Positions 2,266 through 49,570 of a stretch of DNA of 52,981 nucleotides are shown piece after piece. Position numbers and translations under genes: made by a program. The notes beneath the pieces were generated by a model. That model did not search any database. It was given only the letters and a program-made list of their open reading frames with translations, and was not told where the DNA came from. This stretch comes from a virus. The first letter of the stretch is position 1. The number at the start of each line of letters is the position of its first letter. The stretch lies in UHGV virus genome UHGV-1367038. One strand, 5' to 3'.

Positions 2266-2269
2266 TACT

Positions 2270-2373: not shown

Positions 2374-4149
2374 ATGATTTACACAACAGGCACGATAGCC
2401 GTTAGCGGAAAAACAGTTACCGGAACGGGGACTGAATTCAACGCCGCATTATCTCTGATCAGAGTGGGTTGCACTCTTATTGCCATTAGTAATCCGGTGC
2501 AGATTTTCTCAATCACAGAGGTAAAAAGCGCGACAAGTTTGTCAGTAACTCCGGCAGCAAGCCCGGCAATTCCGGCTGGAACTAAATTTAGCATCCTGCT
2601 TTCAGATTCGATCTCTGTGGATGGTCTTGCTCAGGATGTTGCAGAAACACTGCGTTACTATCAGGGCAAGGAATCAGAAATAGCTGACGCCGTTGAATTT
2701 TTTAGCGACAACAAAGATGTGATTTCAGCCTCAAAATTAGCATCAGAATCAGCTACCACTGCAACCAATGCGGCAACAACAGCGACAACCGCCGCCAATT
2801 CAGCAAAGACATACAGAGACGAGGCCCACGAATACGCCAATCAGACGGCGCAGCCTTACGCGTATGTTTTGCAGCCGCTGCCGGACGTATGGATACCGTT
2901 TAATGATTCACTTGATATGCTCACTGGCTACGGCCCTGGCACTAAAAAAGTAACCATTGATGGTGAAGAAAAAACAATATCATCAGATAAGGTTGTTTCT
3001 TTCTCACGCGCAAGCACTGCGACCTATATCAATAAATCCGGTGTACTCACCACTGCTGATATTGATGAGCCGCGTTTCGAACGCGATGGATTATTAATCG
3101 AAGGCACACGCACAAATTACCTTACCAATTCTAATACGCCGACGTCGTGGAATGCTAACACAGGCGTCTTAGAATTAACTGAATCAGGGACGGATAGTTA
3201 CGGCTTTAATTATGGAACATTTACATGCACAGCAGATGCGGCATCAACAGCGACGTTAATTTCGACAGGCACATCAAGAGTAATAGCTACCGCATCCGGC
3301 GAATCAGTTACTATTTCCGGGCGCTTTAAGGGTACTGGCGTCCGCGCACGGGCGCGTATCTCAAAACTTAATGAAGATGGATCAGGTAATACATTCATTG
3401 CTGACGCGCTTTTGGATCTTGATACAAAAGTTTTAACGTACGCCGCTAATTATCTATCTGCTTACTTCGTTGATGAAGGAAACGGATGGCTTTTCTTTTC
3501 CACCACGTATACAGCAACCGAAGATATTGACGTCTACGCACGCTTTGAATTATCACCAAAAACCGGGGAAACATTAGCAATAGGCGACAGTATCACCATG
3601 ACCACGCCGCAGTATGAGTCTGGTTCTTGCGCATCATCGTTTATTGTATCAGGTGACAATCCAACCACACGAGCAAGCGACCTGGTAAGCATACCGACTA
3701 AGAATAACTTATTTAAGCCACCATTCAGTTTTTTACTTGAATTACATAAGGAATGGACAACAGCGCCAAACGCAGCACCTAGAGTATTTGATATTGCAAA
3801 CGCAAGCACAGGACAATCTATTATAGCTGCCATTAACAGAGGTAGCAGTAAATTTTACGTTTCCTTGTCTAACAGTTCTGGTGATTACATCAATTCTGCC
3901 GCTGATTCCGTATTGCCAAGTAAAGCCATTGTTGGTGCGGTAGCTAAAGGTGATGATACTTTTCACGCGATCATGGATGGTGTGGCCGTTGCAGATGCAA
4001 CATGTTCTTACGGTGGAGTAACTCAAGGCAAAAACATCAGATTCGGCGGTCAGGTAGCAGACGGAGCGCGCCACTTGTTCGGACATATAAGAAATTTTCG
4101 TATCTGGCACAAAGCATTAACTGATTCTCAATTAAGCGAAATTGTTTAA
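2374..4149 (+). CDS. Side tail fiber protein with C-terminal lectin/LamG-like domain
   Basis: 591 aa; GGAG RBS; N-terminal MIYTTGTIAVSGKTVTGTGTEF typical of enterobacterial phage tail fibers; Ala/Thr-rich shaft; position after J. Confidence 0.6.
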   Translation: MIYTTGTIAVSGKTVTGTGTEFNAALSLIRVGCTLIAISNPVQIFSITEVKSATSLSVTPAASPAIPAGTKFSILLSDSISVDGLAQDVAETLRYYQGKESEIADAVEFFSDNKDVISASKLASESATTATNAATTATTAANSAKTYRDEAHEYANQTAQPYAYVLQPLPDVWIPFNDSLDMLTGYGPGTKKVTIDGEEKTISSDKVVSFSRASTATYINKSGVLTTADIDEPRFERDGLLIEGTRTNYLTNSNTPTSWNANTGVLELTESGTDSYGFNYGTFTCTADAASTATLISTGTSRVIATASGESVTISGRFKGTGVRARARISKLNEDGSGNTFIADALLDLDTKVLTYAANYLSAYFVDEGNGWLFFSTTYTATEDIDVYARFELSPKTGETLAIGDSITMTTPQYESGSCASSFIVSGDNPTTRASDLVSIPTKNNLFKPPFSFLLELHKEWTTAPNAAPRVFDIANASTGQSIIAAINRGSSKFYVSLSNSSGDYINSAADSVLPSKAIVGAVAKGDDTFHAIMDGVAVADATCSYGGVTQGKNIRFGGQVADGARHLFGHIRNFRIWHKALTDSQLSEIV

Positions 4150-4159
4150 GGTGGTTAGC

Positions 4160-4426
4160 ATGAAAGACGTTAGCTTGCAATTTACTGATAAACAGCAATA
4201 CAACGACATTGTGATTAACAGCGGCTGGCTGGACGAAAATCAGCAAACCGTGTTTATTGATGATATTGGTTTTGTTCTTGTATTCGATGATCCAGAAAGC
4301 GACACGCCTGTACTGATTGAGAAAAAAGGCTATTACGTCAACATGCGCATAACTGGTGACGATGTTGATTTGTCGCCGCTGGAAAAATTCATCATTCCAG
4401 ATCCCGGCGTCCGCGCATGGGCTTAA
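4160..4426 (+). CDS. Hypothetical protein downstream of tail fiber
   Basis: ATG with AAGGTGG RBS; 88 aa; the listed ORF start at 4142 is a TTG. Confidence 0.5.
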   Translation: MKDVSLQFTDKQQYNDIVINSGWLDENQQTVFIDDIGFVLVFDDPESDTPVLIEKKGYYVNMRITGDDVDLSPLEKFIIPDPGVRAWA

Positions 4427-4470
4427 TGGTGCGATAGTAACAGCATGGTGATGTTGAAGACATCGCCGCG

Positions 4471-4500
4471 AAACGAGGCTAACGCCTCGTTTCTTTTTGT
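4471..4500 (+). terminator. Rho-independent terminator
   Basis: AAACGAGGC-taac-GCCTCGTTT then CTTTTTGT. Confidence 0.7.
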
Positions 4501-4519
4501 GTACCAAATAGTGACCAAA
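4499..4519. repeat. Arm-type direct repeat copy 1 (GTGTACCAAATAGTGACCAAA), candidate integrase arm site in attP
   Basis: 19/21 identical to copy at 4740..4760; flanks int. Confidence 0.45.
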
Positions 4520-4702
4520 TATCAAAAATCAAAAGCAAAAATAACGTAATACACTGTTTTATAAATGATTATTCGTTGCGCTAACCATTCCAGACAGGAC
4601 CAGCGCACTATGTTTAAAGGTGTTTAACTCCGTTCAATCTCTCCACTAAAATTACTTAAAAATCATCCGGTTGTAACCAAAATCAAGCGTCACGTTTCTA
4701 AT

Positions 4703-4774: not shown

Positions 4775-5989
4775 ATGCTTACGGATACCAGGTTAAGGAC
4801 TATTGCCAACAAGCCATATGACGGCCCAGGCGAGATAGCTGATCGTGATGGCCTGTCAGCCAGGATAAGCCCAAAAGGGAAAATTACCTTTCAGTACCGT
4901 TACAGATTCAACGGTAAGCCAGTGCGAATGAAGATCGGCGAGTACGGGAAAATGAGTCTGAAAGACGCCCGCTACGCGGTGGCTGAATACAGGGAGTTGC
5001 TTACGAAAGGGAAGAATCCGGCACTGTGCGTAAAGCAGGCCATAGCCTTTGAGCAGGGCAAGCGATCTATATCCGACGTAGTGGAAGACTACCTATCCCT
5101 GCCGAACGTCATTAAGCTGGTGGCGTATAAAGAAGTAAAAAGCGCATTGATGCGCCACGTGGTCAACAAGTACGGCGACTACATAGCTGACGACGTAACG
5201 ACAAAACAGTGGATGGATATATTTGGCGAGATCACGAAGGCGGGGCACGCCGTTACGGCGGGTTTGATATTAAAGCGAATGAAAATCATCGTTAACAGCG
5301 CAATCAGGCGCGGGATAATGACTAACACAGCGATAAACAATATCCGTGTCGCTGACGTTGGCGAGCATTATGCGGTGGGTGAACGTTATTTATCATGCGA
5401 GGAGATAGGTCACTTCTGGCGCACTGTAGACAGTTCGCAGATCTATCCGCAGAACAAAATAGCCTTAAAGCTATTATTGCTAACAGGGTGTAGGGTTGGT
5501 GAATTGCAGAAAATGAGAAGGGAACACCTCGACCTGGATAACGGTGTGTGGACCGTTCCGGCGGCGGTGGCGAAGACAAGAAGTGAAATCAGGCGGGGAT
5601 TATCTGACTTGTCGATAAAAATGCTCAGGGAGGTTTTAACCTCCCATGAGTATGATTATGTATTCCCGCCAGTGATTAACGGCGGCAACAGGCCAGTAAA
5701 CGTATCAGTGATAAAAGTAGCTGCAATATTCGTGCGTAAAAGGATGGGCGGTAAATCATGGTCCTGTCACGACCTCCGCAGGACGTGCCGGACACACCTT
5801 TCAGCTATAGGTGTTCCGGTACATATTGCAGAAAAGATCTTAGGCCATTCATTAAGGGGAATACTGGCGGTGTACGACAAATATGATTATCTTGATGAAC
5901 AAAAGGAGGCACTAAATAAGTTTGCTGATTATGTGTTATCTTTGGCTGACGTTAAACCAATCCGATCAAAGAACTGCATTACGTCCTGA
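4775..5989 (+). CDS. int: Tyrosine integrase (P4-like, N-terminal arm-binding domain)
   Basis: 404 aa; N-terminal DUF4102-like arm-binding pattern; C-terminal HDLRRT...HSLRG...Y catalytic motifs; GGGGG RBS. Confidence 0.9.
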   Translation: MLTDTRLRTIANKPYDGPGEIADRDGLSARISPKGKITFQYRYRFNGKPVRMKIGEYGKMSLKDARYAVAEYRELLTKGKNPALCVKQAIAFEQGKRSISDVVEDYLSLPNVIKLVAYKEVKSALMRHVVNKYGDYIADDVTTKQWMDIFGEITKAGHAVTAGLILKRMKIIVNSAIRRGIMTNTAINNIRVADVGEHYAVGERYLSCEEIGHFWRTVDSSQIYPQNKIALKLLLLTGCRVGELQKMRREHLDLDNGVWTVPAAVAKTRSEIRRGLSDLSIKMLREVLTSHEYDYVFPPVINGGNRPVNVSVIKVAAIFVRKRMGGKSWSCHDLRRTCRTHLSAIGVPVHIAEKILGHSLRGILAVYDKYDYLDEQKEALNKFADYVLSLADVKPIRSKNCITS

Positions 5990-12513: not shown

Positions 12514-12821
12514 AAACATTGGCCTCCTATGGTTAAAATGAACGCGCGGGCGGGTATCCAATTAGCATTAGATAGCGGTGAGTGACCGCTTAACAGATCC
12601 CGCCGTTGCGTGATATTTGTCTTTCGCTTCGCAGCGACACCGGATTTTTAAAGAGCATGAGGTATGCGCCTTTTTGTGCTATTCCGTTATCTTTTTTCTT
12701 GCGTCTTTGCAACTATGGCCTTACCTTGTCTGCAAGTTTACAGAATGGAGTTTTTAGATCAAGACTTGAAAAATACATTTTGTGACTTGTATCAAACTTT
12801 TTGAGGTTATAGGGTAGCGAC

Positions 12822-13593: not shown

Positions 13594-13622
13594 TTGACTC
13601 GGTGTATCACGGGGCGTATATT
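13594..13622 (+). promoter_or_regulatory. pL-like sigma70 promoter
   Basis: TTGACT - 17 bp - TATATT; TATACAAAATGGA motif abuts the -35. Confidence 0.55.
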
Positions 13623-13664: not shown

Positions 13665-13702
13665 TGCTCTTTAACAATCTGGTCAGCCGCTGGAAGTGCG
13701 GC
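13665..13702 (+). promoter_or_regulatory. nutL-like site: boxA-like TGCTCTTTAAC plus boxB-like hairpin GCCGC-tggaagt-GCGGC
   Basis: Between pL-like promoter and N-like gene, spacing as in lambda nut sites. Confidence 0.4.
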
Positions 13703-21508: not shown

Positions 21509-21576
21509 TGTGATGAGGATCACATAATGGCGCTTTATTGCTTGTTCGCATGTATCCGTTTTGTATACTTCAAACA
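21509..21576 (+). promoter_or_regulatory. Conserved intergenic element: perfect CRP-consensus palindrome TGTGA-N6-TCACA plus ATCCGTTTTGTATAC block
   Basis: TGTGATGAGGATCACA at 21509..21524; homologous to 17941..18008. Confidence 0.5.
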
Positions 21577-21647
21577 AACAAAATGCTCTTTAAAAATCCG
21601 GTAACGCTGAAATGCGTAAAAATCACCTGAAAAAAGGAGAGAGCATT

Positions 21648-22848: not shown

Positions 22849-23027
22849 AAAACGAAATTAAAGATCTGCAAATTGATATTCAGCGCGACGAGCGTGATTT
22901 AGAAACGGTCAGACAAATCCAGGCTTTCCACATGCGAGAATTACTCGCGCTAAAAGAGTTTGAAAGGAAGTTAGTGCAAGCTATTTCTGATCGCAAACGC
23001 CTTGTTGCTCGTTACGGGGGCAAATAA
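22845..23027 (+). CDS. Hypothetical protein
   Basis: 60 aa ORF, coupled. Confidence 0.45.
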   Translation: MKNEIKDLQIDIQRDERDLETVRQIQAFHMRELLALKEFERKLVQAISDRKRLVARYGGK

Positions 23028-23755
23028 TGAATTTAGAGTCAATTCTAAAATTCCACTTTCCTAAATCGCCGCGATTATCAGACGAAAGCCGTGGTACATC
23101 CCCTGATGCGCTTAATACTACTGATGCGCTTACCGCAGCTGGTATGGCGCAATCTCGCGTAGAGCTTGGATATAGCGCTTTTTTGGGAAAGATGGAGCTA
23201 TCGCAAGCCGAAAAACACAGGGCCGTAGTTTTGCTTACAGAGCGTTTAAGAGCTATGGCAAAAGATTACGAATACGTCATGGAACTGGACGAGGAAAAGC
23301 GCAATGATTTTATTATTCTTGTTGCCGTTTTCGCGTTTCGGGATTACTGCCAGAGTGCAGCGACCGAAAAAGTTTGCCCTAAGTGCTGCGGTCACGGGCA
23401 TTTACCAAATCAATATTGCAAATACACATCAACAATTTGCGCACGGTGCGGCGGCAAAGGCTACGTTAAAAACCATTGCCAGCGGTGCAAGGGCCGTGGC
23501 GAAGTACCGGATAAAGCAGCCAGCGAGGCAGCGGAAATGCCAGTTTTCAGAACGTGCCAGCATTGCGGCGGGCGCGGGTACTCGCGTTTCCCTGTAGATC
23601 TTGTCCGGCAGGCGGTTAATCAGCTTGTTTTTCCGGTAAGCCGATCAACATGGTGGAAGAAATACAGGGTTTTCTATGAGGACGCCATAGCTGAGCTATT
23701 CAAAGAAGAAGCCCGCGCGGAAAGCGAAATCAAGCGAGTGACGAGAGGTGAATAA
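23027..23755 (+). CDS. Putative late-gene regulator (Q-like antiterminator candidate) with DnaJ-type CxxCxGxG zinc fingers
   Basis: CPKCCGHGH, CARCGGKGY, CQRCKGRGE, CQHCGGRGY; position after NinG-RusA as in lambdoid phages. Confidence 0.4.
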   Translation: MNLESILKFHFPKSPRLSDESRGTSPDALNTTDALTAAGMAQSRVELGYSAFLGKMELSQAEKHRAVVLLTERLRAMAKDYEYVMELDEEKRNDFIILVAVFAFRDYCQSAATEKVCPKCCGHGHLPNQYCKYTSTICARCGGKGYVKNHCQRCKGRGEVPDKAASEAAEMPVFRTCQHCGGRGYSRFPVDLVRQAVNQLVFPVSRSTWWKKYRVFYEDAIAELFKEEARAESEIKRVTRGE

Positions 23756-27782: not shown

Positions 27783-27826
27783 GTTTACAAAATGGCATTG
27801 TTCCGGCAGTGCCATTTTGTTATAAA
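27783..27826 (+). promoter_or_regulatory. Conserved inverted-repeat element ACAAAATGGCA-N12-TGCCATTTTGT followed by TATAAA
   Basis: Homologous to elements at 44124..44166 and 47170..47217. Confidence 0.45.
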
Positions 27827-27861: not shown

Positions 27862-28140
27862 ATGAAACGCTGGATTAACAAAGAAGTCGAATCTCGCTTA
27901 AACGCATTTTGGGAGATGGTGGAGAAAGAAGACCCAGCACACGCTGCAAGCCCTTATCTGAACAACATTGAATATCACTACATTGCAGCAAACAACGCGG
28001 AGTTCGAGGAAGAAGGAGGGGCAGACAAGTTTGCACAAAGTAACGCATTCAACAACGCAAACGAAATGATGATGGCAGTTATCGAACAGGCAGAGGAAGA
28101 CTACGAATGCAAAGCACTTGAATTTGCACGCATGGCATAA
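27862..28140 (+). CDS. Hypothetical acidic protein
   Basis: GGAGGG RBS; 92 aa. Confidence 0.5.
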   Translation: MKRWINKEVESRLNAFWEMVEKEDPAHAASPYLNNIEYHYIAANNAEFEEEGGADKFAQSNAFNNANEMMMAVIEQAEEDYECKALEFARMA

Positions 28141-29653: not shown

Positions 29654-29823
29654 ACGAGATCGAAGATGGTATCTATGTGCATAACTTATTTGATATTACT
29701 TACTTGCTGAAAGAAGAAAAGGTTTTTGTTATGTCGAGTGGGCATCCTTTCTGGACTTTCGTAAACATGGATCGTGAACAGATGCAAATATTGCTTGATA
29801 ATGGCCTGATAAAGAAGAAATAG
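29650..29823 (+). CDS. Hypothetical protein (57 aa)
   Basis: ATGA overlap with upstream stop. Confidence 0.4.
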   Translation: MNEIEDGIYVHNLFDITYLLKEEKVFVMSSGHPFWTFVNMDREQMQILLDNGLIKKK

Positions 29824-29889
29824 AAACCATAATCGCGCATAAAAAACAAATAGATTAAAATACTTCCTAACAATGCGAAATTGTAATTA

Positions 29890-29912
29890 CCCGGCACCGC
29901 GCCGGGTTTTTG
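29890..29912 (+). terminator. tR'-like terminator about 20 nt upstream of holin
   Basis: CCCGGC-accgc-GCCGGG then TTTTT. Confidence 0.7.
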
Positions 29913-29931: not shown

Positions 29932-30132
29932 ATGTTCGACAGAATACGGGAGGCGTGCGCGTATGTGACTGGGGCCGTAACTGCTTTTTTCGGCGCGATA
30001 ACCATCAATGACATTGCCGTCTTTGTGGGTATCTTATCAACCATTGGCACATTTGCCGTTAATTATTACTTCAAATCACAGGAGAACAAGCGAGCGCAAG
30101 AGGAACACGACGCGCGAATGGGGAATAAGTAA
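29932..30132 (+). CDS. Class II holin (phage 21 S-like pinholin candidate)
   Basis: 66 aa, two TM segments, charged C-terminus; GGAGG RBS. Confidence 0.6.
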
Positions 30133-30133
30133 A

Positions 30134-30625
30134 ATGATTAGCCAATCGCTGAAAAACAAAATTGTTGCGGCGGCGGCTGGTGGGGCGATCGCTATTGCGG
30201 CGGTGATGATAAAAGATCTTGAAGGCGTTGAGTATGAGCCATACAGAGATGTTATCGGTGTTTACACAATATGTTATGGTCACACCGGAAAGGACATTAT
30301 GTTGGGTAAGACTTACACGCAATCAGAATGCGATGCTTTGTTAAATAAAGATCTCCACAAAACCGCAAAAGCGATCGACCCCTATATTAAAGTCGAAATA
30401 TCAGATTTTACCCGCGCGGCGCTTTATTCATTCGCCTATAACGTAGGCGCTACAAACTTCAAAACATCAACCTTATTGAAGCTACTTAATGACGGCAAGA
30501 AATCAGAAGCGTGCGCACAGCTTAAACGCTGGATATACGCTGGCGGCAAGAAGTGGCAAGGCCTTGTTAACCGCCGTGATGTTGAATATGCCGTTTGCGA
30601 ATGGGGTGAAACATGGACAAGGTAA
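30134..30625 (+). CDS. SAR endolysin (T4-type lysozyme, GH24)
   Basis: N-terminal Gly/Ala-rich signal-anchor-release segment; E..D..T catalytic pattern ([22 protein letters not shown]). Confidence 0.8.
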
Positions 30626-31080
30626 AGGCGTTAATTATTGCCGTTGTTCTCTGTGTTGTTACCGCTCTGGTAGCTGCGTTATCTCACACTACCAGTCAGA
30701 TTTCTGCATTAGAGGCAGAGTTACAGACCACACAGGGCGCACTTAAGACAGCAAGTAACACTATTCAGCAGATGAAGGAGCGAAACGCCGAACTGTCAAA
30801 ACTTGATAAGAGGTATCACGATGAAATTAAAGCTATCAGGTCTGACATTGCCGATCTGCGCACTGGCATTGACAATGGCACTATCAAGCTGCGCGTCAAC
30901 GCAATGCCAGTGCGAGTGGACTCCGCCACAGGAACCGCCAGCAGCATTGATGGAGCCACCTGTAGACTCACTGCCAGTGCTCAATCAAATTATCTATCCC
31001 TCAGAGAACAATTAAAAGAGAAAGACGCGAAGATCACCGGATTGCAGGACTACATCAAGACGCAGTGCTTACGCAAATAA
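30613..31080 (+). CDS. Rz: Rz-like i-spanin
   Basis: N-terminal TM segment plus coiled-coil periplasmic domain; overlaps lysozyme stop. Confidence 0.7.
30821..31015 (+). CDS. Rz1: Rz1-like o-spanin lipoprotein, embedded in Rz in the +1 frame
   Basis: AGAGG RBS; lipobox LSSC; Pro-rich mature region. Confidence 0.6.
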   Translation: MKLKLSGLTLPICALALTMALSSCASTQCQCEWTPPQEPPAALMEPPVDSLPVLNQIIYPSENN

Positions 31081-41850: not shown

Positions 41851-42327
41851 ATGTCTCAGACTTGCGAAAAAGGCGCATTTTTGGGCCGCGACGTGGCTGT
41901 ATTCTTCGCTATCGCTTGTCCTAACGCGAAGCCAGAAGATGGAGAATACAATGCGTTAGGCATGATGCGCGGCAAAACGCTTTCCGTTGAATGGGAAACG
42001 GCAGACGCCACCGCTGATAAATCAGCAAACTACACTAAGGAATCAATGGTAACTTACAAATCCGTTTCTTTCTCCGGCGACGGCGTATCCCGTACTGAAG
42101 AAATCCACAACCAGAAGACGTTGAAACGTCATACCATTAACCCTGGTGAAACTACTGGTAATCAACCTTATGTATGGTTGAAAATCGTTTCTCCTGTAGA
42201 TGTGACCGAGGGGCCGTTCCTTTGCACCTCCTTTAAAGAAGAAGATCCACACGATGATGTTTCCACCTGGTCAATCGAGTGTGAAAGCGCTGGACAGGTA
42301 AGTGTGGAAGATATTCCAGAAGCATAA
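41851..42327 (+). CDS. Major tail (tube) protein
   Basis: 158 aa; followed by terminator; position before chaperone and tape measure. Confidence 0.5.
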   Translation: MSQTCEKGAFLGRDVAVFFAIACPNAKPEDGEYNALGMMRGKTLSVEWETADATADKSANYTKESMVTYKSVSFSGDGVSRTEEIHNQKTLKRHTINPGETTGNQPYVWLKIVSPVDVTEGPFLCTSFKEEDPHDDVSTWSIECESAGQVSVEDIPEA

Positions 42328-42345
42328 CAAATAACATTAACAATC

Positions 42346-42369
42346 GGGGCCATCTGGCCCCTTTCTTTT
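42346..42369 (+). terminator. Rho-independent terminator after major tail gene
   Basis: GGGGCC-atct-GGCCCC then TTTCTTTT. Confidence 0.7.
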
Positions 42370-42381
42370 AGGGTGACAGTT

Positions 42382-43059
42382 ATGATCCATGTTCGAACAG
42401 GACAATTTGCAGCCGTGGTAGACGGCAGGCGGTACGTATTTAATCCCTGCTTCGCCGCGATGGCTAAGATCGGCAGTGACACCGAACTGGTGGAATACTT
42501 CGCAATCATCCACGGTGGCAAATATCCATCACGATTACCAGCAGATCCAGACTTACGCAATCGCATTCTGGCGCGCTGTTATGGTGAGATAGTGCAAACG
42601 TCCATGCACATCCTGAAATGTTGCGCAGAAGACGAAACAGGGCCATTGCTGGGCGAATGCAGATTCACTTCCTCCGGCAAGTTGAGACTAAAACCCGGAT
42701 TGATGCCAACAGAGGATGTAATCACGCTGGCACAGCATTGCATGTACCACGGTTTAATCGGTGACGGGCCGGAAGAATACGACGGTGAGATCCGGGAAGG
42801 TGAATATAAGCCGACATTTGATGTTCTTGAATTCGTTTACTCTGCCGTTGCTCACCTTGGATTGTCAGAATCAGAAGCGTGGAACATGACAATGACCGGA
42901 TACAGGGCCGCTGTACGTGCTAAAACGCCTCCAGACGAAAGAAACGAAAGAAGTAAGCCAAACGTTCACATAAATAAACGTGCTTATGACGAGCAAATGG
43001 AGGCCGCTAAAAAGGCGCTGGAAAGAATGAAAAATCGCAAGCAAGAAAAAGCCCGGTAG
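42382..43059 (+). CDS. Putative tail assembly chaperone
   Basis: AGGGTGA RBS; position between major tail and tape measure. Confidence 0.45.
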   Translation: MIHVRTGQFAAVVDGRRYVFNPCFAAMAKIGSDTELVEYFAIIHGGKYPSRLPADPDLRNRILARCYGEIVQTSMHILKCCAEDETGPLLGECRFTSSGKLRLKPGLMPTEDVITLAQHCMYHGLIGDGPEEYDGEIREGEYKPTFDVLEFVYSAVAHLGLSESEAWNMTMTGYRAAVRAKTPPDERNERSKPNVHINKRAYDEQMEAAKKALERMKNRKQEKAR

Positions 43060-43082
43060 ATCCGGGCGTTCTCTTTTATTTG
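43045..43082. terminator. Bidirectional terminator between the plus-strand chaperone gene and minus-strand moron cassette 1
   Basis: CCCGG-tagat-CCGGG flanked by A-run upstream and T-run downstream. Confidence 0.55.
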
Positions 43083-43378
43083 TATGCTGAAAACCTGCAT
43101 CTTGCTTCTTCTAAATCGCTTACTGTATACACGTTCTCAAAAACATACGTCGCAACCTGTACTTTTTGCACGTCCGTAGCGTTAGGGAATTCCATGCTGG
43201 CGAACGTTAAAGCGTCGACGTAGTGTTTAAACATTTTCTTGTTTACGCATAGCGCGTAAATCAATACAGCAGGCCAAAAAATCAGAGCGCCAATAAAAGC
43301 CATAAGCATGTTTAAGTGTTTTTTACCAGCTACGACCATAGTCACAACGAATCCAATGAAGCCAATTATTAGTTCCAT
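43076..43378 (-). CDS. Moron 1d: membrane protein
   Basis: AAGGAGG RBS; MELIIGFIGFVVTMVVAGKK; two TM segments. Confidence 0.5.
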   Translation of the reverse strand: MELIIGFIGFVVTMVVAGKKHLNMLMAFIGALIFWPAVLIYALCVNKKMFKHYVDALTFASMEFPNATDVQKVQVATYVFENVYTVSDLEEARCRFSAYK

Positions 43379-43389
43379 GATGCGCCTCC

Positions 43390-43497
43390 TTATTTGCATT
43401 CGCCTTTTATTGTCAGTGCCAGCACGAATACAGCCATTACATTAAAAGCTACCCATGCTGACATATACACGTCTATGATGCTTTTGATAATATCCAT
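43390..43497 (-). CDS. Moron 1c: small membrane peptide (35 aa)
   Basis: GGGGG RBS; MDIIKSIIDVYMSAWVAFNVMAVFVLALTIKGECK. Confidence 0.4.
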   Translation of the reverse strand: MDIIKSIIDVYMSAWVAFNVMAVFVLALTIKGECK

Positions 43498-43498
43498 G

Positions 43499-43849
43499 TT
43501 ACGCCCCCGCCTCAATTCTGTTATGAATTGCGAATCCTTTAACTTCGCCGTCATGAATCACTTTTAATTGTTCAGGATCTTTTAATCCTTCAACTATTTC
43601 TTTGTATTTTTCGTGTAGTCTATATTCTTCAACAATTTTTTTATCAAGAAATGGCACTACTGCTTTATATTCACATGCTGCGTTATATACGATCTCAACA
43701 TAACCCATGCTGTCACCATACTTGATGTCGTACAATTCAGCGGCAACCGCGCATTCATGTTTTGCTTTATCAACTTTGTTTTCTGCGTTAGCACCAAATG
43801 CAAATGCTGCAATCATCGCCGCCATCACTGCTTTTGCTAACCGTTTCAT
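43499..43849 (-). CDS. Moron 1b: secreted/periplasmic protein
   Basis: GAGGTGG RBS; Sec signal peptide MKRLAKAVMAAMIAAFAFGANA. Confidence 0.6.
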   Translation of the reverse strand: MKRLAKAVMAAMIAAFAFGANAENKVDKAKHECAVAAELYDIKYGDSMGYVEIVYNAACEYKAVVPFLDKKIVEEYRLHEKYKEIVEGLKDPEQLKVIHDGEVKGFAIHNRIEAGA

Positions 43850-43861
43850 AAACCACCTCGC

Positions 43862-43951
43862 TTAATTTTTGTTTTTAAGTGCTTTTAACATTTCTTCGAT
43901 GAAATCAGCATAGCGTTCATATTCGTTGGGGCGGTAGTTTACGTTTTTCAT
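43862..43951 (-). CDS. Moron 1a: small hydrophilic peptide (29 aa)
   Basis: AGAGGA RBS; MKNVNYRPNEYERYADFIEEMLKALKNKN. Confidence 0.35.
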   Translation of the reverse strand: MKNVNYRPNEYERYADFIEEMLKALKNKN

Positions 43952-44123
43952 TTTCTTATCCTCTTTTGCTTCCTCCGGTTTATCCGGCCTTTTAAAATCC
44001 TTTTCCTGCTTCCTTAGTTTTAGGGGATTTCGCCTCCCTCGTTCCTTCGGTTAGCTGGGCTTCAAGTCTCAATCCTTTATATCCTTCGACCTTCTTTTCC
44101 CTCTCTCATCCTTCACCTTCTTT

Positions 44124-44166
44124 ATACAAAATGGAGTCGTTGAAGTGAAGCCATTTTGTATAAAAT
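44124..44166 (+). promoter_or_regulatory. Conserved inverted-repeat element TACAAAATGG-N16-CCATTTTGTA followed by TATAAAAT
   Basis: Near-identical to 47170..47217; lies between moron cassette 1 and tape measure gene. Confidence 0.5.
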
Positions 44167-44201
44167 AGAGACGTAGATCACATTTTGTATGAGGTTAAAT
44201 C

Positions 44202-46544
44202 ATGGCTACCAGTTTAGGTACAATTTATTACGAAGTTGACGCCAAAACGGGGCAACTTCTTGTCGTGCAGCGGCAAGCAGATCAAACGTTTGACACCATC
44301 GAGCGCGGCGCAAAACGTGCCGATCGCCAGGTGAATACACTTAAAACGTCAATCAAAACACTGACCAGGGCAATCCACCTGCTACTTGCTGCCGAGGCTG
44401 TGCGCCAGTTTATTGATATGGCGGAACAGGCAAAACAGTTACGCGTAAAAATCAAAATGCTGACAGGTGATGCCGAGTCTGCCGGACGGGTTTTCGATGG
44501 TCTGAAAGCAATATCCAGGGAGACAGGTCAGAGCCTGAAAGATACTGGCGAATTATGGCAAGGACTGGCTATCTCACTCAAGAACACCTCCGCCACGGAA
44601 GGGCAACTGCTTAACCTGGTTGGCACTATTCAGAAAATGGGTGCGCTAGGAGGTGCGTCAGCGGAACAAATGTCTAACTCAATGCGCCAGTTCCGCCAGG
44701 CTATCGACGGCGGCGTATTGCGTGCTGAAGAATTCAACAGCCTACTTGAAAACACTCCCACCATCGTACAGACAATGGCCCGCCAGATGGGGTTATCAAT
44801 GGGCCAGTTCCGCGCTGAAATGCTGGACGGCAAGATCACGGCTGAAAGGATGGTCAACGCAATCCAGGCGGCTACGCAGGAAACAAACGATAAGTTTGCT
44901 CAGTTGCCGCGCACATCCGGCATGGCTATCAACGAACTAAAAGTCGAAGTGATGGGCCTGGTTGAGCAACTGGACGATCTTTTCGGTGTATCAGATGGCG
45001 TGGTATCAGCTATCGACTTAATCACGAAGGTCGTTAAAGGGTTAGGTGAGGGCGCTAAATTCGCTAAAACCTGCTTCGACACACTCAAAACGGCTGGTAG
45101 CGAATTTATCGACATGTTTGATGATGTTGCTGTTAAAGCTGGTGAGGTGGCGGAGAAGATCATCGCAATGGTGACGCCAATCAAGGCGCTAATGGATGCA
45201 TATAAATGGATGAAGGAGGTAGTAGGAGAGCAAACCGACGAATATAACAGCAACTACGAGAAGAAATACGGGAAGACCGTTGGCAAGGTCATGCAACTAC
45301 AGGATGATCTGACAGCAGCAATCCAGGCTACAGAAGAAGCAAGGAAAAATGAACAGAATGCTGCCAATGACGGAGCGATTACCGGATTCGACAAGCCAGT
45401 TGATAAGCCGAAAAAGCAGAAAAAAGAGAAGAAATCGGAAGCCGATCGTCTTGGTGACAGGGGTATAAGCGTTTCTGACCAGTACAATAAAGACGCAGCA
45501 GCTATGCGCAAAGCGTTAGAGAACGGCAAGGCTATTGATGCTGCATTCGCTCAGGGGAAAATAACACTCCTTGAGTACCGCGCAGCGCAAAAGGGGATCG
45601 GCAAGGAACTGAAGGAAGAATTAGCGCAGATCCCTGCAGATGAATTACGTGATAAATGGGCGCAAATAGTAAGCCCGATGGATCAGCTTAAAGGCGAGGT
45701 TGACCCTATTCAGCAGGCGCAAAATGAATGGGCCGTCCGTAAGCAAATGTTGTTAGATCTGAACGCATCAGAGGCGCAAATCAGGGCCGAGCAACTCCAG
45801 CATGAAAGGACCATCACCAGCCTTAAATGGGAACAATGGCAGGCGCAAAGCGATACAAACGGCCTGATCGGTGATTGCGTTAACGGCCTTAAAGGCGGTA
45901 TGAGCAATGCGCTCGTCGGCCTGCTTAACGGTACTCAATCATTGAGCGATGTTTTTGCTAACTTAGGGAGCAATATACTAGGGAACATCGGTAGCAGACT
46001 TTCTGACATAGCCGCCGACTGGATAGCAGATCAAATCATGATGGAGACGCAAAGCAAGGCCACGCAAGCCAGTACAACGGCAAGCGCGGTAGCCGCTCAG
46101 GGAAGCATAGCGGCGGCGGCGGCCCCGGCGGCGGCAGCGACAGCGGCATCAACTGGCGGTAGCTGGGCGGCGGCTGGTTCTGCGGCGCTAACTGCAATCA
46201 TGTCGCTGGCAACATCCATTTTCGGCGGCAGGCGCTTTAATGGTGGTAGTGTCATTGGCGGCAATTTGTACCGTGTCGGGGAAAATAACAGAATGGAGCT
46301 ATTCCAGACGCCTAACGGCAACCAATATATGATCCCTGGCGAGAATGGCAGAATCATCCCTGGCCGTGACATTGGCGGCGGTGGCGGTATTAGTATGCCT
46401 GTCAGTATCAGCATTCAGACCACAAACGGATTTAGCGAAGAAGACAGCCGCAGACTTGAATCAACAATGGAACGTGTAGCCATGAAAATGATAACAAGGG
46501 AGTCGCAAAGACCAGGCGGTATATTGCAGCCGCGCCGCAAATAA
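44202..46544 (+). CDS. Tail tape measure protein
   Basis: 780 aa; tape-measure N-terminal domain; coiled-coil middle; Gly/Ala-rich C-terminus. Confidence 0.85.
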   Translation: MATSLGTIYYEVDAKTGQLLVVQRQADQTFDTIERGAKRADRQVNTLKTSIKTLTRAIHLLLAAEAVRQFIDMAEQAKQLRVKIKMLTGDAESAGRVFDGLKAISRETGQSLKDTGELWQGLAISLKNTSATEGQLLNLVGTIQKMGALGGASAEQMSNSMRQFRQAIDGGVLRAEEFNSLLENTPTIVQTMARQMGLSMGQFRAEMLDGKITAERMVNAIQAATQETNDKFAQLPRTSGMAINELKVEVMGLVEQLDDLFGVSDGVVSAIDLITKVVKGLGEGAKFAKTCFDTLKTAGSEFIDMFDDVAVKAGEVAEKIIAMVTPIKALMDAYKWMKEVVGEQTDEYNSNYEKKYGKTVGKVMQLQDDLTAAIQATEEARKNEQNAANDGAITGFDKPVDKPKKQKKEKKSEADRLGDRGISVSDQYNKDAAAMRKALENGKAIDAAFAQGKITLLEYRAAQKGIGKELKEELAQIPADELRDKWAQIVSPMDQLKGEVDPIQQAQNEWAVRKQMLLDLNASEAQIRAEQLQHERTITSLKWEQWQAQSDTNGLIGDCVNGLKGGMSNALVGLLNGTQSLSDVFANLGSNILGNIGSRLSDIAADWIADQIMMETQSKATQASTTASAVAAQGSIAAAAAPAAAATAASTGGSWAAAGSAALTAIMSLATSIFGGRRFNGGSVIGGNLYRVGENNRMELFQTPNGNQYMIPGENGRIIPGRDIGGGGGISMPVSISIQTTNGFSEEDSRRLESTMERVAMKMITRESQRPGGILQPRRK

Positions 46545-46548
46545 ACAA

Positions 46549-46580
46549 AACCCCGGTACAATGCCGGGGTTATCTTTTAT
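46549..46580. terminator. Bidirectional terminator after tape measure gene
   Basis: CCCCGG-tacaatg-CCGGGG then TTATCTTTTAT. Confidence 0.7.
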
Positions 46581-46753
46581 TCATTATCAAAACTTGTATA
46601 TCCTCTCTCAATTTTCCCGCCTCTTACGCTTTTGGCGAATACTGCGTCAGTGTATTTGAAAAACGGTTCTGTGTATGTATCGCCTTTCGTGTCCATCCAT
46701 TTTACGATCCAGGCCATGCGTTTGACGTTGCTTTTATTTGCAGTGACTTTCAT
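46577..46753 (-). CDS. Moron 2c: small protein (58 aa)
   Basis: GGAGG RBS; MKVTANKSNVKRMAWIVKWMDTKGDTYTEPFFKY. Confidence 0.45.
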   Translation of the reverse strand: MKVTANKSNVKRMAWIVKWMDTKGDTYTEPFFKYTDAVFAKSVRGGKIERGYTSFDNE

Positions 46754-46771
46754 TTTATTTTCCTCCGCAAA

Positions 46772-46864
46772 TTACAATCTTCCGTTTCTTGCTATGTAGC
46801 TGCGAGCAAACATCACTTGCCAGATGTTCCATATTTCACGCCAGGTGAATTTATCGTCATTCAT
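46772..46864 (-). CDS. Moron 2b: small protein (30 aa)
   Basis: GAGGTAGG RBS; MNDDKFTWREIWNIWQVMFARSYIARNGRL. Confidence 0.35.
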   Translation of the reverse strand: MNDDKFTWREIWNIWQVMFARSYIARNGRL

Positions 46865-46871
46865 ACCTACC

Positions 46872-47126
46872 TCACTTATGCGCACCTTTGACGCCGCAGT
46901 GCCTGTTATATTCAAGATGATCGATGATTAACCATACCTTGAGGTCTTCACTGAACAGCCGCCAATCAGGGTTGATGTCAAATTTGAAACCGTATCCGTC
47001 GCGTAACTTTTTGGGGTACGCTTCTTTCTTCAGAAACGCTTTGAGCAATTCCTTACCTTTCTTGATGATCCGGTCCTGTGCGTTTTTCTGTGCTTTCAGG
47101 TTTTTGTCAATCGCTACCAGTTTCAT
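46872..47126 (-). CDS. Moron 2a: basic hypothetical protein (84 aa)
   Basis: ORF with start at 47126. Confidence 0.5.
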   Translation of the reverse strand: MKLVAIDKNLKAQKNAQDRIIKKGKELLKAFLKKEAYPKKLRDGYGFKFDINPDWRLFSEDLKVWLIIDHLEYNRHCGVKGAHK

Positions 47127-47169
47127 AACATCCCCCTTTGCGTAACGTCTTTCTCATTTGCTTTCTGTA

Positions 47170-47217
47170 TACAATATGGAGTTCATAAAGTGAAGCCATT
47201 TTGAAAACTGGTTATAA
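47170..47217 (+). promoter_or_regulatory. Conserved inverted-repeat element TACAATATGG-N16-CCATTTTG followed by TATAAT
   Basis: Homolog of 44124..44166; near-CRP site TGTGA-N6-TCTCA at 47222..47237. Confidence 0.5.
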
Positions 47218-47293
47218 TTCCTGTGATGAATGTCTCATTTTTCGCGTAGAATCGCGTAAAGATATATACAAAATGTAACTTATAGGGGGTTTT

Positions 47294-47647
47294 ATGCCTG
47301 AAGTGTTCCGATGGACACCACAAAGAAGCTACAGCGTAAACAGTGAGCCTAACGTGTCTGTCATTAAACTGGGTGATGGGTATGAACAGAGGCAGACAAA
47401 AGGGATTAACCCTTTACTTGATAGCTATACGCTGGTCTTTAAGGGTACGAGCGCAGGATGCGGTGACGCCGGAAACGTAGCGCTACAGGTTGACGCATTT
47501 TTAAGAGCACGTTGCGCGGTCGAGGCGTTTTACTGGACTCCATCAACGGATGGAGTTCAAAGGCTTTTTGTATGCCGAAAGTGGAGCATGACGAAAGACG
47601 GCCCGGTATGCACGCTGAATGCAACGTTTGAACAAGTTGTCAATTAA
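47294..47647 (+). CDS. M: Minor tail protein M-like
   Basis: 117 aa; DGYEQR motif and C-terminal ATFEQVVN resemble lambda M. Confidence 0.8.
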   Translation: MPEVFRWTPQRSYSVNSEPNVSVIKLGDGYEQRQTKGINPLLDSYTLVFKGTSAGCGDAGNVALQVDAFLRARCAVEAFYWTPSTDGVQRLFVCRKWSMTKDGPVCTLNATFEQVVN

Positions 47648-47660
47648 TGGAGGTGTCAAT

Positions 47661-47846
47661 ATGTATGCTATTTGTGTAGTTGACCGCACTGGCGCTTTTA
47701 CATTGTTTGACGACTACGAGATCAACGACCTTACTGTAAAAGCTGATAATGGTGAGACCTGGTATCTTCATGACGTTGGTGACGGGTATGTTGGGTGCAG
47801 GTCGAGAGAAGGCAAGGAAGTTTTATTCTTACTTGATGGCGTATAA
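47661..47846 (+). CDS. Hypothetical protein
   Basis: GGAGG RBS; 61 aa. Confidence 0.45.
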   Translation: MYAICVVDRTGAFTLFDDYEINDLTVKADNGETWYLHDVGDGYVGCRSREGKEVLFLLDGV

Positions 47847-47852
47847 ACACGA

Positions 47853-47876
47853 CCCCGCGCGAAGCGGGGTTTTACA
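47853..47876 (+). terminator. Rho-independent terminator
   Basis: CCCCGC-gcgaa-GCGGGG then TTTTAC. Confidence 0.65.
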
Positions 47877-47947
47877 TTGTTGATAGCAGAATAAACAATA
47901 ATCCTATTATTATAATAATCACTTCTAATATGTAGTGATAACACATA

Positions 47948-48196
47948 TCATAATGTTTCCCTTAAGTATGTTAACCCCTTATCAGTGACGAATGAATGAT
48001 TAACCTGGTTTTCATCCGTCATGATGATGAATAACTTTTCCTGTAGGTATTTCGCTTTAGGGTACAGCGTTAAGCAGACCTTGTACAGTATCCCGCGCTC
48101 AATCAGCAAATCAATAAATTCGTGCTCATGATAACCGATGAGGCGGGCGGCCTGTTTCAACGTGTACACATAATCGCCGTGATTGCGCCGCCCCAT
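47948..48196 (-). CDS. Moron 3c: small protein with possible HTH
   Basis: AAGGCGG RBS; YTLKQAARLIGYHEHEFIDLLIERGILY. Confidence 0.5.
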   Translation of the reverse strand: MGRRNHGDYVYTLKQAARLIGYHEHEFIDLLIERGILYKVCLTLYPKAKYLQEKLFIIMTDENQVNHSFVTDKGLTYLRETL

Positions 48197-48205
48197 GTTG
48201 CCGCC

Positions 48206-48568
48206 TTATTTATCGAATGCGCTCAGGTTATCTATGCAGAAGTCTTTCGCGGCTTTTTCGTATTCGAGTTTTGCTTTCGGGTCGTCTGCCGGGAAACCTT
48301 TTGCGTGTATTTCGCCAGGGCAAGCCTGATCCATAGAGTTAGCAAAATTAACATTGAGGTTCACATTAATATCTTTCGGGTTCATAGCATTGTCCTCGTC
48401 TTGTTCGTCGTCTGGTATTTCTATCGGGTTAACTGTAAAGTCACATGCCCTGTTCCAGCACCGGAGTATTTCAATACCTTCGACTCGCGCCTTTTCATAC
48501 GTTTCGAATATCCCAAGATATTCCCATTCTTGCCTGTCAGTCCATACATCTAAACGCCATTTTCTCAT
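48206..48568 (-). CDS. Moron 3b: hypothetical acidic protein
   Basis: Start at 48568 or 48580; overlaps 3a by at least 32 nt. Confidence 0.45.
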   Translation of the reverse strand: MRKWRLDVWTDRQEWEYLGIFETYEKARVEGIEILRCWNRACDFTVNPIEIPDDEQDEDNAMNPKDINVNLNVNFANSMDQACPGEIHAKGFPADDPKAKLEYEKAAKDFCIDNLSAFDK

Positions 48569-48755
48569 TTCGCCCACCATTGAATTTAATAGGTTTAATC
48601 CGGTAGCCCATTACTCGATCATCTTTTTCTGATAGGTCTAAGGCCGTATCTAATGCGTCTCCAGGATTATCGAATTCAGCATCGACATCACGCCCATTAC
48701 TCATAAATAAGGTTAGTATCCATAACTTGTCATTCATTCCGCGCCATTGTTCCAT
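48537..48755 (-). CDS. Moron 3a: hypothetical protein
   Basis: AAGGAGG RBS before ATG 48755; MEQWRGMNDKLWILTLF. Confidence 0.5.
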   Translation of the reverse strand: MEQWRGMNDKLWILTLFMSNGRDVDAEFDNPGDALDTALDLSEKDDRVMGYRIKPIKFNGGRNEKMAFRCMD

Positions 48756-48831
48756 TTTGTTGACCTCCTTCCGTTTGAGTAAAATATACATATTGTAAAA
48801 ACCGAGATCAATCCATTTTGGTATGATTTAG

Positions 48832-48847
48832 CGTGACACAGATCACA
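48832..48847 (+). promoter_or_regulatory. CRP-like palindrome cGTGA-N6-TCACA about 20 bp upstream of L
   Basis: CGTGACACAGATCACA; preceded by ATCCATTTTGGTATGA block. Confidence 0.4.
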
Positions 48848-48865
48848 AAATGACAAGGTGAGAAA

Positions 48866-49570
48866 ATGCGCAGTATACCTACAGAGATGATTATTGATTC
48901 CGTCGACGCCGGAGTTGGCGCGGTCATTGACTTATTCGAACTGGATTTATCGCCCATGGGTGGCGATGTTATCCGATTCCATTCCGGCGCAAACGGCTAT
49001 TACGGTCCGGTTATCTGGAAGGGCGTAGCTTACAACAGCTACCCGATCGAGGCTACTGGCTTCGAAATGAAAAACGAAGGCGTTTATTCGCGTCCTCAAA
49101 TGGTTGTAGCCAACATCGGCGGGCTAATTACGGGGATGAATAACGATTTCAACGACCTAAGAGGAATGAAGGTGACGCGCCGCCAGGTGGAGGTTAAATA
49201 TCTGGACGCTGTTAACTTCCCTAACGGCAATCCAGATGCAGATCCATCCATTGAGGCTGTGTCGTTTTATGTCGTCGAATCAATGAGCGAAGAAACTGCG
49301 GACCAGGTGCAATACGAACTGTCAACGCCAATTGATGCTGACAAAGCCGTTATTCCTGGTCGCACCATCCTTGCTGATGTTTGCCAGTGGCAGTACAGGG
49401 GCGACGGGTGCATGTATTCTGGCGGCCCTGTAGCAACGGATAAAGATGTACCGACAAGCGATCCAACGTTAGACAAATGCAGCCACAGATTGAGTGGTTG
49501 CCGTTTGCGTTTCCCGCGTCCGGCAGCACTGCCAATCTCCTGTTTCCCTGGTTCCAGCAAGGTAGGTTAA
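48866..49570 (+). CDS. L: Minor tail protein L-like
   Basis: 234 aa; resembles lambda L (FLDAVNF.NGN..ADP ... WQYRGDGC.YSG ... DKCS..LSGC). Confidence 0.85.
   Translation: MRSIPTEMIIDSVDAGVGAVIDLFELDLSPMGGDVIRFHSGANGYYGPVIWKGVAYNSYPIEATGFEMKNEGVYSRPQMVVANIGGLITGMNNDFNDLRGMKVTRRQVEVKYLDAVNFPNGNPDADPSIEAVSFYVVESMSEETADQVQYELSTPIDADKAVIPGRTILADVCQWQYRGDGCMYSGGPVATDKDVPTSDPTLDKCSHRLSGCRLRFPRPAALPISCFPGSSKVG

Follow-up and report, generated by a model that had tools for sequence, protein, structure and literature searches.

Three minus-strand operons in the tail module

We analysed the virus genome UHGV-1367038 (52,981 nucleotides (nt); "the window" below means this whole stretch), in which the plus-strand tail gene module is broken by three minus-strand mini-operons. 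The window represents a mEp021-like (mEpimmI) temperate siphophage of Escherichia coli. Its nearest match is the UMNK88 prophage of E. coli (89% identity), and MagusPhagus, mEp021 and mEp044 are the further closest matches to the region (82-85% identity). The mini-operons lie at 43076-43951, 46577-47126 and 47948-48755 (cassettes 1, 2 and 3) and comprise ten minus-strand open reading frames (ORFs), with three to four small genes per unit. They occupy the junctions between the DUF6246 gene and the tape-measure gene (slot 1), between the tape-measure gene and the M-like gene (slot 2), and between M with a following small gene and L (slot 3). An initial annotation made from the sequence alone had described these three interruptions, and every ORF was found where it had been placed. 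This includes the first gene of cassette 3, whose start was set at 48755 because the longer call, an ORF of 84 amino acids (aa), takes in the predicted promoter. The genes of the region are as follows.

41851-42327, plus strand: tube gene
42373-43059, plus strand: DUF6246 chaperone-like tail protein (Pfam, E = 2e-53)
43076-43399, minus strand: cassette 1, last gene, a 107-aa ORF for a predicted membrane protein with two transmembrane (hydrophobic) segments
43390-43497, minus strand: cassette 1, 35-aa peptide with a single transmembrane segment predicted by hydropathy
43499-43849, minus strand: cassette 1, 116-aa protein with a predicted Sec-type signal peptide, MKRLAKAVMAAMIAAFAFGANA/E
43862-43951, minus strand: cassette 1, first gene, 29-aa peptide with a GAGGA Shine-Dalgarno sequence upstream
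44202-46544, plus strand: tape-measure gene
46577-46753, minus strand: cassette 2, 58-aa basic protein with a strong GGAGG Shine-Dalgarno sequence
46772-46864, minus strand: cassette 2, 30-aa Trp-rich peptide MNDDKFTWREIWNIWQVMFARSYIARNGRL with a good Shine-Dalgarno sequence, starting 4 nt past the stop codon of the 84-aa gene
46872-47126, minus strand: cassette 2, first gene, 84-aa protein with the fold of the RelE/ParE toxin superfamily and a good Shine-Dalgarno sequence
47294-47647, plus strand: M-like gene
47661-47846, plus strand: conserved 61-aa gene (phrog_3249, function not assigned)
47948-48196, minus strand: cassette 3, last gene, 82-aa protein consisting of a stand-alone KilAC (ANT C-terminal) domain
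48206-48568, minus strand: cassette 3, 120-aa protein (124 aa if read from the upstream ATG at 48580)
48537-48755, minus strand: cassette 3, first gene, 72-aa protein (phrog_29559, function not assigned) with an AAGGAGG Shine-Dalgarno sequence 7 nt upstream of the ATG at 48755
48866-49570, plus strand: L gene, followed by K, I and J

The GC content of cassettes 1, 2 and 3 is 0.389, 0.420 and 0.417, respectively, below that of the tail genes (0.47-0.51), so the base composition of the units is unlike that of the flanking genes, as is characteristic of morons. Tail genes of a single operon lie to either side of the opposite-strand genes, which is the gene map of a non-contiguous operon.

The coding status of the ORFs was assessed by counting substitutions at the first, second and third codon positions in alignments with seven mEp-type relatives (eight sequences including the window). 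An excess at the third position was found in every ORF tested. The counts were 15, 3 and 44 for the 29-aa peptide, 18, 7 and 57 for the 30-aa peptide, and 13, 6 and 28 for the 35-aa peptide, and among the larger ORFs they were 50, 35 and 189 (84 aa), 16, 19 and 92 (58 aa), 17, 8 and 67 (82 aa), and 66, 23 and 109 (120 aa). Indels in the 29-aa gene have lengths divisible by three and keep the frame, a Shine-Dalgarno sequence precedes each gene, five of the products match Pfam or PHROG, and dozens of homolog clusters were found. The ten ORFs, including the 29-aa and 30-aa peptides, thus evolve as coding sequence. The notion that they arose by chance as open frames in the AT-richer spacers separating the tail genes, which the shortness of several (29, 30 and 35 aa) and the absence of a family match for most might favour, is refuted by these substitution tests, in line with the in-frame indels, ribosome-binding sites, family matches and homolog clusters.

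Contents and conservation of the three slots

Minus-strand genes are present at the same three junctions in every mEp-type relative. The 29-aa peptide, the pair of 84-aa and 30-aa genes, the 120-aa protein and the 82-aa protein are carried by all seven. In a separate comparison with 35 E. coli prophages, the slot 2-3 region was covered to at least 63% in 34, and a KilAC-like gene is annotated in 34. Slot 1 is hypervariable, since more than 80% of the window's slot 1 was found in only one of the 35. Absence between the same neighbours in close relatives, which marks a moron, therefore holds for the slot 1 cargo, whereas within the mEp group it fails for the cores of slots 2 and 3. The cassettes in slots 2 and 3 are long-standing, conserved components of the phage family, and only slot 1 is truly variable. 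The description of the cassettes as inserted, if taken to mean a recent event, is contradicted by the five products kept in all relatives and by the near-constant slot 2-3 region of the prophages.

In slot 1, the 29-aa peptide (86-97% aa identity) is the sole gene found in all seven relatives. The other three products are patchily distributed. Simple hydropathy agrees with the initial description of cassette 1 as encoding a secreted protein, a membrane peptide and a membrane protein. In the 116-aa protein, ANA/E follows a hydrophobic segment at the N terminus; the protein occurs in one of the seven relatives (65% identity), with one distant phage match, in mEp515 (38%). Its signal peptide resembles those of two unrelated slot 1 proteins, mEp021_63 and a 138-aa protein of MagusPhagus. 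The 35-aa peptide and the two-transmembrane protein were each found in three of the seven relatives. The latter probably starts at M8 (43378, giving 100 aa), because its homologs are all 100 aa long. It has only eight homolog clusters, all from E. coli phage contexts, and matched no Pfam, PHROG, PADLOC or NCBIfam family above threshold. Scans of the cassette 1 proteins against these four collections gave no informative family, and the NCBIfam scan of all products gave nothing usable. In other genomes, slot 1 holds the 138-aa secreted protein or a TagO-annotated protein.

Comparison of the slot 1 secreted proteins (116 aa here, 43499-43570; 138 aa in mEp021 and MagusPhagus, L003 2625-2696 and L004 2600-2672) showed a shared signal peptide, MKRL.K...AF.ANA. 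The shared signal peptide attached to unrelated mature parts suggests that cargo is exchanged by recombination within the signal-peptide coding region. Validated superinfection-exclusion lipoproteins of mEp phages were considered as slot tenants and rejected, since gp81 lies beyond J and the slot 1 signals are of the Sec and not the lipoprotein type. Slot 1 would carry exchangeable envelope cargo, with one secreted and two membrane proteins. Judging from predicted localisation and rapid turnover, these products most likely modify the host envelope or block entry by other phages.

The initial annotation held that none of the products was recognisable, but profile searches identified two of them above the family cut-offs. 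The first is the 84-aa product of cassette 2, which matches PF24732 ParE_like (E = 2.2e-10, 40.8 bits against a curated cut-off of 24.4) and whose homologs are named "ParE family toxin-like" by the NCBI pipeline. Two structure comparisons placed it in the RelE/ParE toxin superfamily, and the expected α-helical hairpin and antiparallel β-sheet were found. The family is very narrow (six matches among 1.8 billion representatives in an exhaustive phmmer search), and a sequence search of the PDB gave no significant match. The gene co-occurs with that of the 30-aa peptide in all seven relatives. The peptide is near full length in six of them, and in the seventh (L007) the alignment covers the first 56 nt only. 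The 58-aa protein is present in five of the seven and matched no family in the Pfam, PHROG, PADLOC and NCBIfam scans. We read slot 2 as a conserved RelE/ParE-fold toxin-like protein with two putative small partners, which may form a stress, abortive-infection or stabilisation module.

Slot 2 is longer in some relatives. Five of the seven have an extra 51-aa gene upstream of the toxin-fold gene, which the window lacks. In mEp021 (L003 5354-6688), the slot has extra genes for a repeated zinc-ribbon protein and a T5orf172/GIY-YIG-looking protein, which may represent a mobile insertion.

The second recognisable product is the 82-aa protein of cassette 3, which matches the KilAC domain PF03374 (E = 1.3e-7, 32.3 bits against a cut-off of 25.3) over residues 10-82. 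It is 91-99% identical in the seven relatives, at or above the level of the neighbouring tail genes, and was also found in all seven mEp-type phage records. More distant matches align with longer Rha/Ant regulators, in their C-terminal parts only. The N-terminal AntA, Bro-N, KilA-N or Rha domain expected of an antirepressor was not found, and a sequence search of the PDB gave no significant match. The paper that defined the mEpimmI group counts a KilAC-like antirepressor as part of the core gene set of 48 genomes and contains no other discussion of these units (PMC11893012).

The 120-aa protein of cassette 3 combines a fast-evolving N-terminal β-β-α-β domain, an acidic linker and a nearly invariant C-terminal part of about 50 aa. 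Its homologs form 49 clusters (46-92% identity), all from E. coli, phages or metagenomes. In the AlphaFold2 model, the predicted local distance difference test score is above 90 in the N-terminal domain and below 60 in the C-terminal part. A Foldseek search of the PDB with this model found no fold match (best E = 0.85), leaving an earlier guess of a HicB-like fold unsupported. Homologs of the 72-aa protein (51-67 aa long, 46-52% identity) were found in five of the seven relatives; like the 58-aa protein, it gave no informative family in the Pfam, PHROG, PADLOC and NCBIfam profile scans. Slot 3 would encode a conserved KilAC-only protein, possibly nucleic-acid-binding or antirepressor-like, and two small proteins, one of them with a fast-evolving domain.

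Next to cassette 3, the plus-strand 61-aa gene is 82-97% identical in the seven relatives. At the counterpart position in Salmonella phage ES18, between M and the slot 3 cargo, there is an unrelated DUF1327 gene annotated as a "possible moron".

Terminators and divergent intergenic regions

The initial annotation had placed each cassette between a terminator and a conserved intergenic element. Hairpins were indeed found at all three convergent junctions, so that each unit has a predicted terminator of its own, as is expected of a moron. The terminators and the divergent regions are listed below; the promoters are predictions read from the sequence.

43051-43067, both strands: bidirectional intrinsic terminator common to the DUF6246 gene (plus) and cassette 1 (minus), GCCCGG-TAGAT-CCGGGC, scoring on both strands
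46549-46571, both strands: bidirectional terminator common to the tape-measure gene (plus) and cassette 2 (minus), with a 10-bp/8-bp GC-rich stem, T-runs and scores on both strands
47852-47870: terminator hairpin between the plus-strand 61-aa gene and cassette 3, ACCCCGC-GCGAA-GCGGGGT, scoring on the minus strand and with a TTTT tail on the plus strand
43952-44201: divergent region 1, with a 12-bp inverted repeat, TATACAAAATGG (44123-44134) and CCATTTTGTATA (44151-44162); predicted minus-strand promoter with -35 TTCACT (44149-44144), a 17-bp spacer and -10 TATAAA (44126-44121)
47127-47293: divergent region 2; predicted minus-strand promoter with -35 TTCACT (47194-47189; TTCACA in relatives), a 17-bp spacer and -10 TATACA (47171-47166)
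48756-48865: divergent region 3; predicted minus-strand promoter with TTGATC (48811-48806), a 17-bp spacer and TATATT (48788-48783)

The conserved element is clearest in regions 1 and 2, where 44109-44158 and 47154-47203 are 80% identical over 50 nt; region 3 has only a looser version of the dyad, and the claim of a common element holds there in that weaker form. The dyad pattern TACAWWWTKG-N12-20-CCATTTTG was found at three loci against zero expected. In the alignment of eight genomes, the 90-130 bp adjoining the start codons of the tape-measure, M and L genes are highly conserved despite the differing cassette content, and about 90 bp upstream of the tape-measure gene are kept in all 35 E. 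coli prophages. The block common to regions 1 and 2 is most simply explained as the cassette promoter, because reading it on the minus strand gives σ70-like promoters with a 17-bp spacer. The minus-strand promoter of region 3 was also picked up by a promoter scan (9 of 12 positions matching), and both of its hexamers are conserved in the eight sequences.

Promoter-like sequences are present on the plus strand as well. Region 1 contains a mirrored half, CCATTTTG-TATAAA, before the tape-measure gene. Region 2 contains a perfect TATAAT (47213-47218) upstream of the M-like gene that is invariant in the eight sequences, and region 3 contains an extended -10 element, TGgTATGAT (48819-48827), upstream of L. 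CRP-like sites lie 5' of the start codons of L (CGTGA-N6-TCACA, 48832-48847) and of the tape-measure gene (AGAGA-N6-TCACA, 44167-44182) and are conserved in relatives; elsewhere in the window, a CRP-type perfect palindrome, TGTGATCCTCATCACA, lies at 21509-21524. An insertion of about 92 nt (around 44016-44108), purine-rich on the minus strand, lies in the leader that separates the predicted cassette 1 promoter from the 29-aa gene and is shared, among the relatives examined, only with the UMNK88 prophage.

The motif CCATTTTGTATA is over-represented in the window (23 matches against 6.6 expected) and occurs at other promoter-like places, including beside nut sites. Copies lie near early promoters, and an operator for Rep is a candidate identity. 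The lambda-type boxA TGCTCTTTAA... marks nutL at 12650-12662 (minus), nutR1 at 13667-13679 (plus) and nutR2 at about 21582-21594 (plus). These sites follow promoter-like sequences, either CCATTTTG/CCGTTTTG-TAnAnT (12737-12750 minus; 21556-21569 plus) or TTGACT-17-TATATT (13594-13622). A reading of the shared element as an RNA hairpin was tried and set aside: only two of four copies fold better than shuffled sequences, and a promoter or operator acting at the DNA level is therefore preferred. An Rfam scan over 42000-49500 gave no match.

A further full copy of the dyad lies outside the tail module at 27786-27826 (TACAAAATGGCA-N10-TGCCATTTTGT, then TATAAA), 5' of the plus-strand gene at 27862-28140, and would form a strong hairpin if transcribed (z = -4.45). 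This copy is unlikely to be the late promoter, because a better promoter-terminator pair is found at 29806-29907, directly 5' of the genes for lysozyme (30008-30625) and Rz (30613-31080). The pair consists of a candidate late promoter, CTGATA-16-CATAAT, and a strong terminator (29889-29907). It resembles PR'/tR' of lambda, yet lies about 6 kb downstream of the Q gene.

Two observations concern the wider map. A strong hairpin terminator at 42346-42361, between the tube and DUF6246 genes, has an annotated counterpart in ES18 and probably lowers expression of the chaperone relative to the tube protein. At the left end, positions 1-4700 have no match to mEp021-type phages; homology begins near 4694, before an integrase-sized ORF (4775-5989), and the start of the window is probably bacterial flanking DNA or a different phage end.

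Probable accessory operons antisense to the late transcript

Comparison with known phages revealed the same three junctions as sites of accessory genes. ES18 and the Salmonella phage vB_SosS_Oslo have homologous tail modules, with DUF6246 proteins 40-43% identical to that of the window. ES18 carries gp18-20, gp22 and gp25, all annotated as "possible moron", at exactly these three positions. Like the cassettes of the window, ES18 gp22 and gp25 are on the opposite strand and have annotated terminators, whereas the ES18 slot 1 genes share the orientation of the tail genes. In Oslo, slot 1 is occupied by a KilA-N/Arc/Arc-like/Ant set, an Arc/Ant cluster resembling immI of P22, and slot 3 by a minus-strand gene. 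Because Oslo slot 1 has a full Arc/Arc-like/Ant set, regulators of the KilAC/Ant class are known tenants of these slots. The window's 82-aa protein shares the KilAC domain with the Ant and Rha phage antirepressors; however, it is the C-terminal domain alone and has no Arc/Mnt-type neighbours. No homology was found between the slot genes of ES18 or Oslo and the products of the window. ES18 and Oslo hold unrelated cargo at the same slots. Unlike ES18 and Oslo, the mEp-type phages have this conserved core and the conserved promoter-like intergenic elements throughout the group.

HK97 gp23, annotated as a "reverse moron product", is likewise a small reverse gene with its own terminator in a lambda-like tail module. 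It lies at a different junction (between I and J), and by record annotation the HK97 units are single genes, whereas those of the window are operons of three to four genes. HK97 gp15 is reportedly a superinfection-exclusion membrane protein whose gene adjoins the tape-measure gene, and the membrane proteins of cassette 1, encoded beside the tape-measure gene, would follow the same idea. On the basis of ES18, Oslo and HK97, we regard the three positions as long-lived accessory-gene slots of the tail module, an established category. An experimentally studied precedent is taiEcA of phage φ80, which is oriented divergently from the Q-dependent late operon that it interrupts. The gene is active in the lysogen, and its expression drops once Q is made; the authors named the TaiEcA/AtiEcA arrangement a "non-contiguous operon" (He et al. 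2024, PMC11364771). The φ80 Tai proteins are set apart by size (about 23-26 kDa; the products of the window are all smaller) and by position (upstream of the packaging module, and not in the tail module). The likeness is one of arrangement and of proposed mechanism, and does not imply inhibition of tail assembly for the window.

Taken together, these features make it fairly probable, in our view, that the units are autonomous opposite-strand accessory operons ("reverse morons") in three fixed ES18/mEpimmI-type tail slots, with their own promoters and antisense to the Q-dependent late transcript. The phage encodes a Q antiterminator (PF03589, E = 5.8e-30; gene 23027-23755), and after the promoter and terminator pair directly 5' of the lysis genes come the genes for packaging, head and tail, all on one strand and in a lambda-like late order. 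Because the phage has both Q and a lambda-like late operon, the units would be embedded antisense in the late transcript, as parts of a non-contiguous operon. In each unit, transcription would start at a σ70-like promoter in the conserved divergent region, pass through the three to four small genes and end at the bidirectional terminator common with the converging tail gene. In the prophage, where the late genes are silent, the promoters of the units themselves would drive their transcription. Once the prophage is induced, polymerase modified by Q would read through the terminators and cross the cassettes antisense, which would lower cassette expression. By analogy, the window may follow the logic of φ80 taiEcA. 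We infer this timing, the antisense control and all of the biological roles proposed here from the gene map and the comparisons.

Several results weigh against this interpretation. A promoter scan of the region gave 13 sites against 11.8 in shuffled sequence, and the minus-strand promoters are consensus-level predictions. The conserved plus-strand -10-like elements at 47213-47218 and 48819-48827 imply that tail genes might be re-initiated and not read through, which weakens the step of antisense control. All nine proteins searched for defence functions matched zero PADLOC-DB 2.0 families at E values up to 0.1. No antitoxin is recognisable beside the toxin-fold protein, and the neighbours of its two distant homologs are not conserved. 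Finally, the near-universal cores of slots 2 and 3, with the KilAC-like protein at 91-99% identity, fit core phage functions better than optional cargo. The initial view of the cassettes as typical moron or lysogenic-conversion cargo accordingly stands in part. It agrees with the self-contained predicted units, their lower GC content, the unrelated "possible moron" genes in the ES18 slots and the hypervariable slot 1 of the 35 prophages, but not with the near-universal retention of the slot 2 and 3 cores among relatives.

The last of these results leads to the alternative that survives best, namely that the conserved parts (the 29-aa peptide, the 84-aa and 30-aa pair, the 120-aa protein and the 82-aa KilAC-like protein) are core lytic or lysis-lysogeny genes, encoding small regulators or assembly factors, and that only slot 1 holds optional cargo. 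Their presence in all seven relatives and that of the slot 2-3 region in 34 of 35 prophages are in agreement with it, as are the constancy of the KilAC-like protein relative to the tail genes, its counting as core in 48 genomes and the occurrence of KilAC domains in Rha/Ant-type regulators. However, the tail machinery does not need these proteins, because ES18 and Oslo have homologous tail genes without them, and in mEp021, for which mass spectrometry mapped 16 structural proteins, none of the conserved products carries a virion annotation. In addition, their GC content is below that of the tail genes, and the fast divergence of the 120-aa protein in its N-terminal domain would suit a conflict protein better than a housekeeping one. 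We consider this alternative a serious possibility, though clearly the less probable one.

Somewhat more doubtful is the view that the cassettes are insulated and free of antisense control, with the tail module divided into four plus-strand units restarted from local promoters and with terminators stopping both converging transcripts. In its favour are the conserved plus-strand -10 elements before M and L and the mirrored half-site before the tape-measure gene. So are the strong hairpins that follow DUF6246, the tape measure and the small gene downstream of M. Yet the plus-strand sites lack good -35 elements, and in the ES18 record comparable terminators are annotated inside one late operon. 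The phage also encodes Q, and Q-modified polymerase of the lambda type typically ignores intrinsic terminators.

The fold of the 84-aa protein raises the further question of whether cassette 2 functions as a type II toxin-antitoxin module with the toxin gene first. The 84-aa toxin would be paired with an antitoxin, either the translationally coupled 30-aa peptide or the 58-aa protein, and the module would serve prophage stabilisation or the abortion of infection by other phages. The protein shares fold and size with toxins such as YoeB, YafQ, HigB, RelE and ParE, its gene and that of the 30-aa peptide are 4 nt apart and always found together in the relatives, and R56, H83 and K84 are invariant in the family alignment. 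These residues presumably recall the C-terminal catalytic His of YoeB/YafQ-type RNases. The C-terminal His is, however, absent from one distant homolog. Unlike type II toxins, the 84-aa protein has no recognisable antitoxin: its neighbours match no antitoxin family in the Pfam, PHROG, PADLOC and NCBIfam scans. The distant homologs P0094 and P0095 lie among unrelated genes and lack the 30-aa peptide, and because these two homologs share no conserved partner, the neighbourhood gives the pairing no support. The partner set of cassette 2 is also not fixed, because five of the seven relatives have the extra upstream 51-aa gene, and there was no PADLOC match. A toxin-antitoxin system in cassette 2 is thus possible, but we regard a working module of this type as unlikely.

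Less likely still is a scheme in which the conserved operons in slots 2 and 3 together encode a self/non-self conflict system that is coupled to late transcription. The prophage would make the RelE/ParE-fold toxin and the KilAC-like binder, which would be neutralised or switched off only through the phage's own Q-driven antisense transcript or a small late product, such as that of the 61-aa gene (47661-47846). A foreign phage would trigger the system or fail to silence it, whereas the resident phage would escape, and the shared dyad (44123-44162, 47168-47207 and 27786-27826) would be a strand-toggling control site.

The interpretation of the cassettes as reverse morons with their own promoters places them in a known class. 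Opposite-strand accessory genes in phage tail operons are known places for superinfection-exclusion and defence genes, and the architecture itself, reverse morons or a non-contiguous operon at ES18-type tail slots, has been described before; the window is an ordinary instance of it. The novelty is modest: in two of the slots, a conserved core that includes RelE/ParE-fold and KilAC-only proteins is retained across the mEpimmI group, under a shared promoter-like element. The window thereby adds a well-defined example with three slots, one hypervariable and carrying orphan envelope proteins, and two with cores kept by a recently described family of gut coliphages. If the genes are expressed in lysogens, they would be candidates for new exclusion, abortive-infection or regulatory functions, and the conserved divergent promoter regions would offer a tractable model of mutual regulation between a late operon and the antisense units embedded in it.

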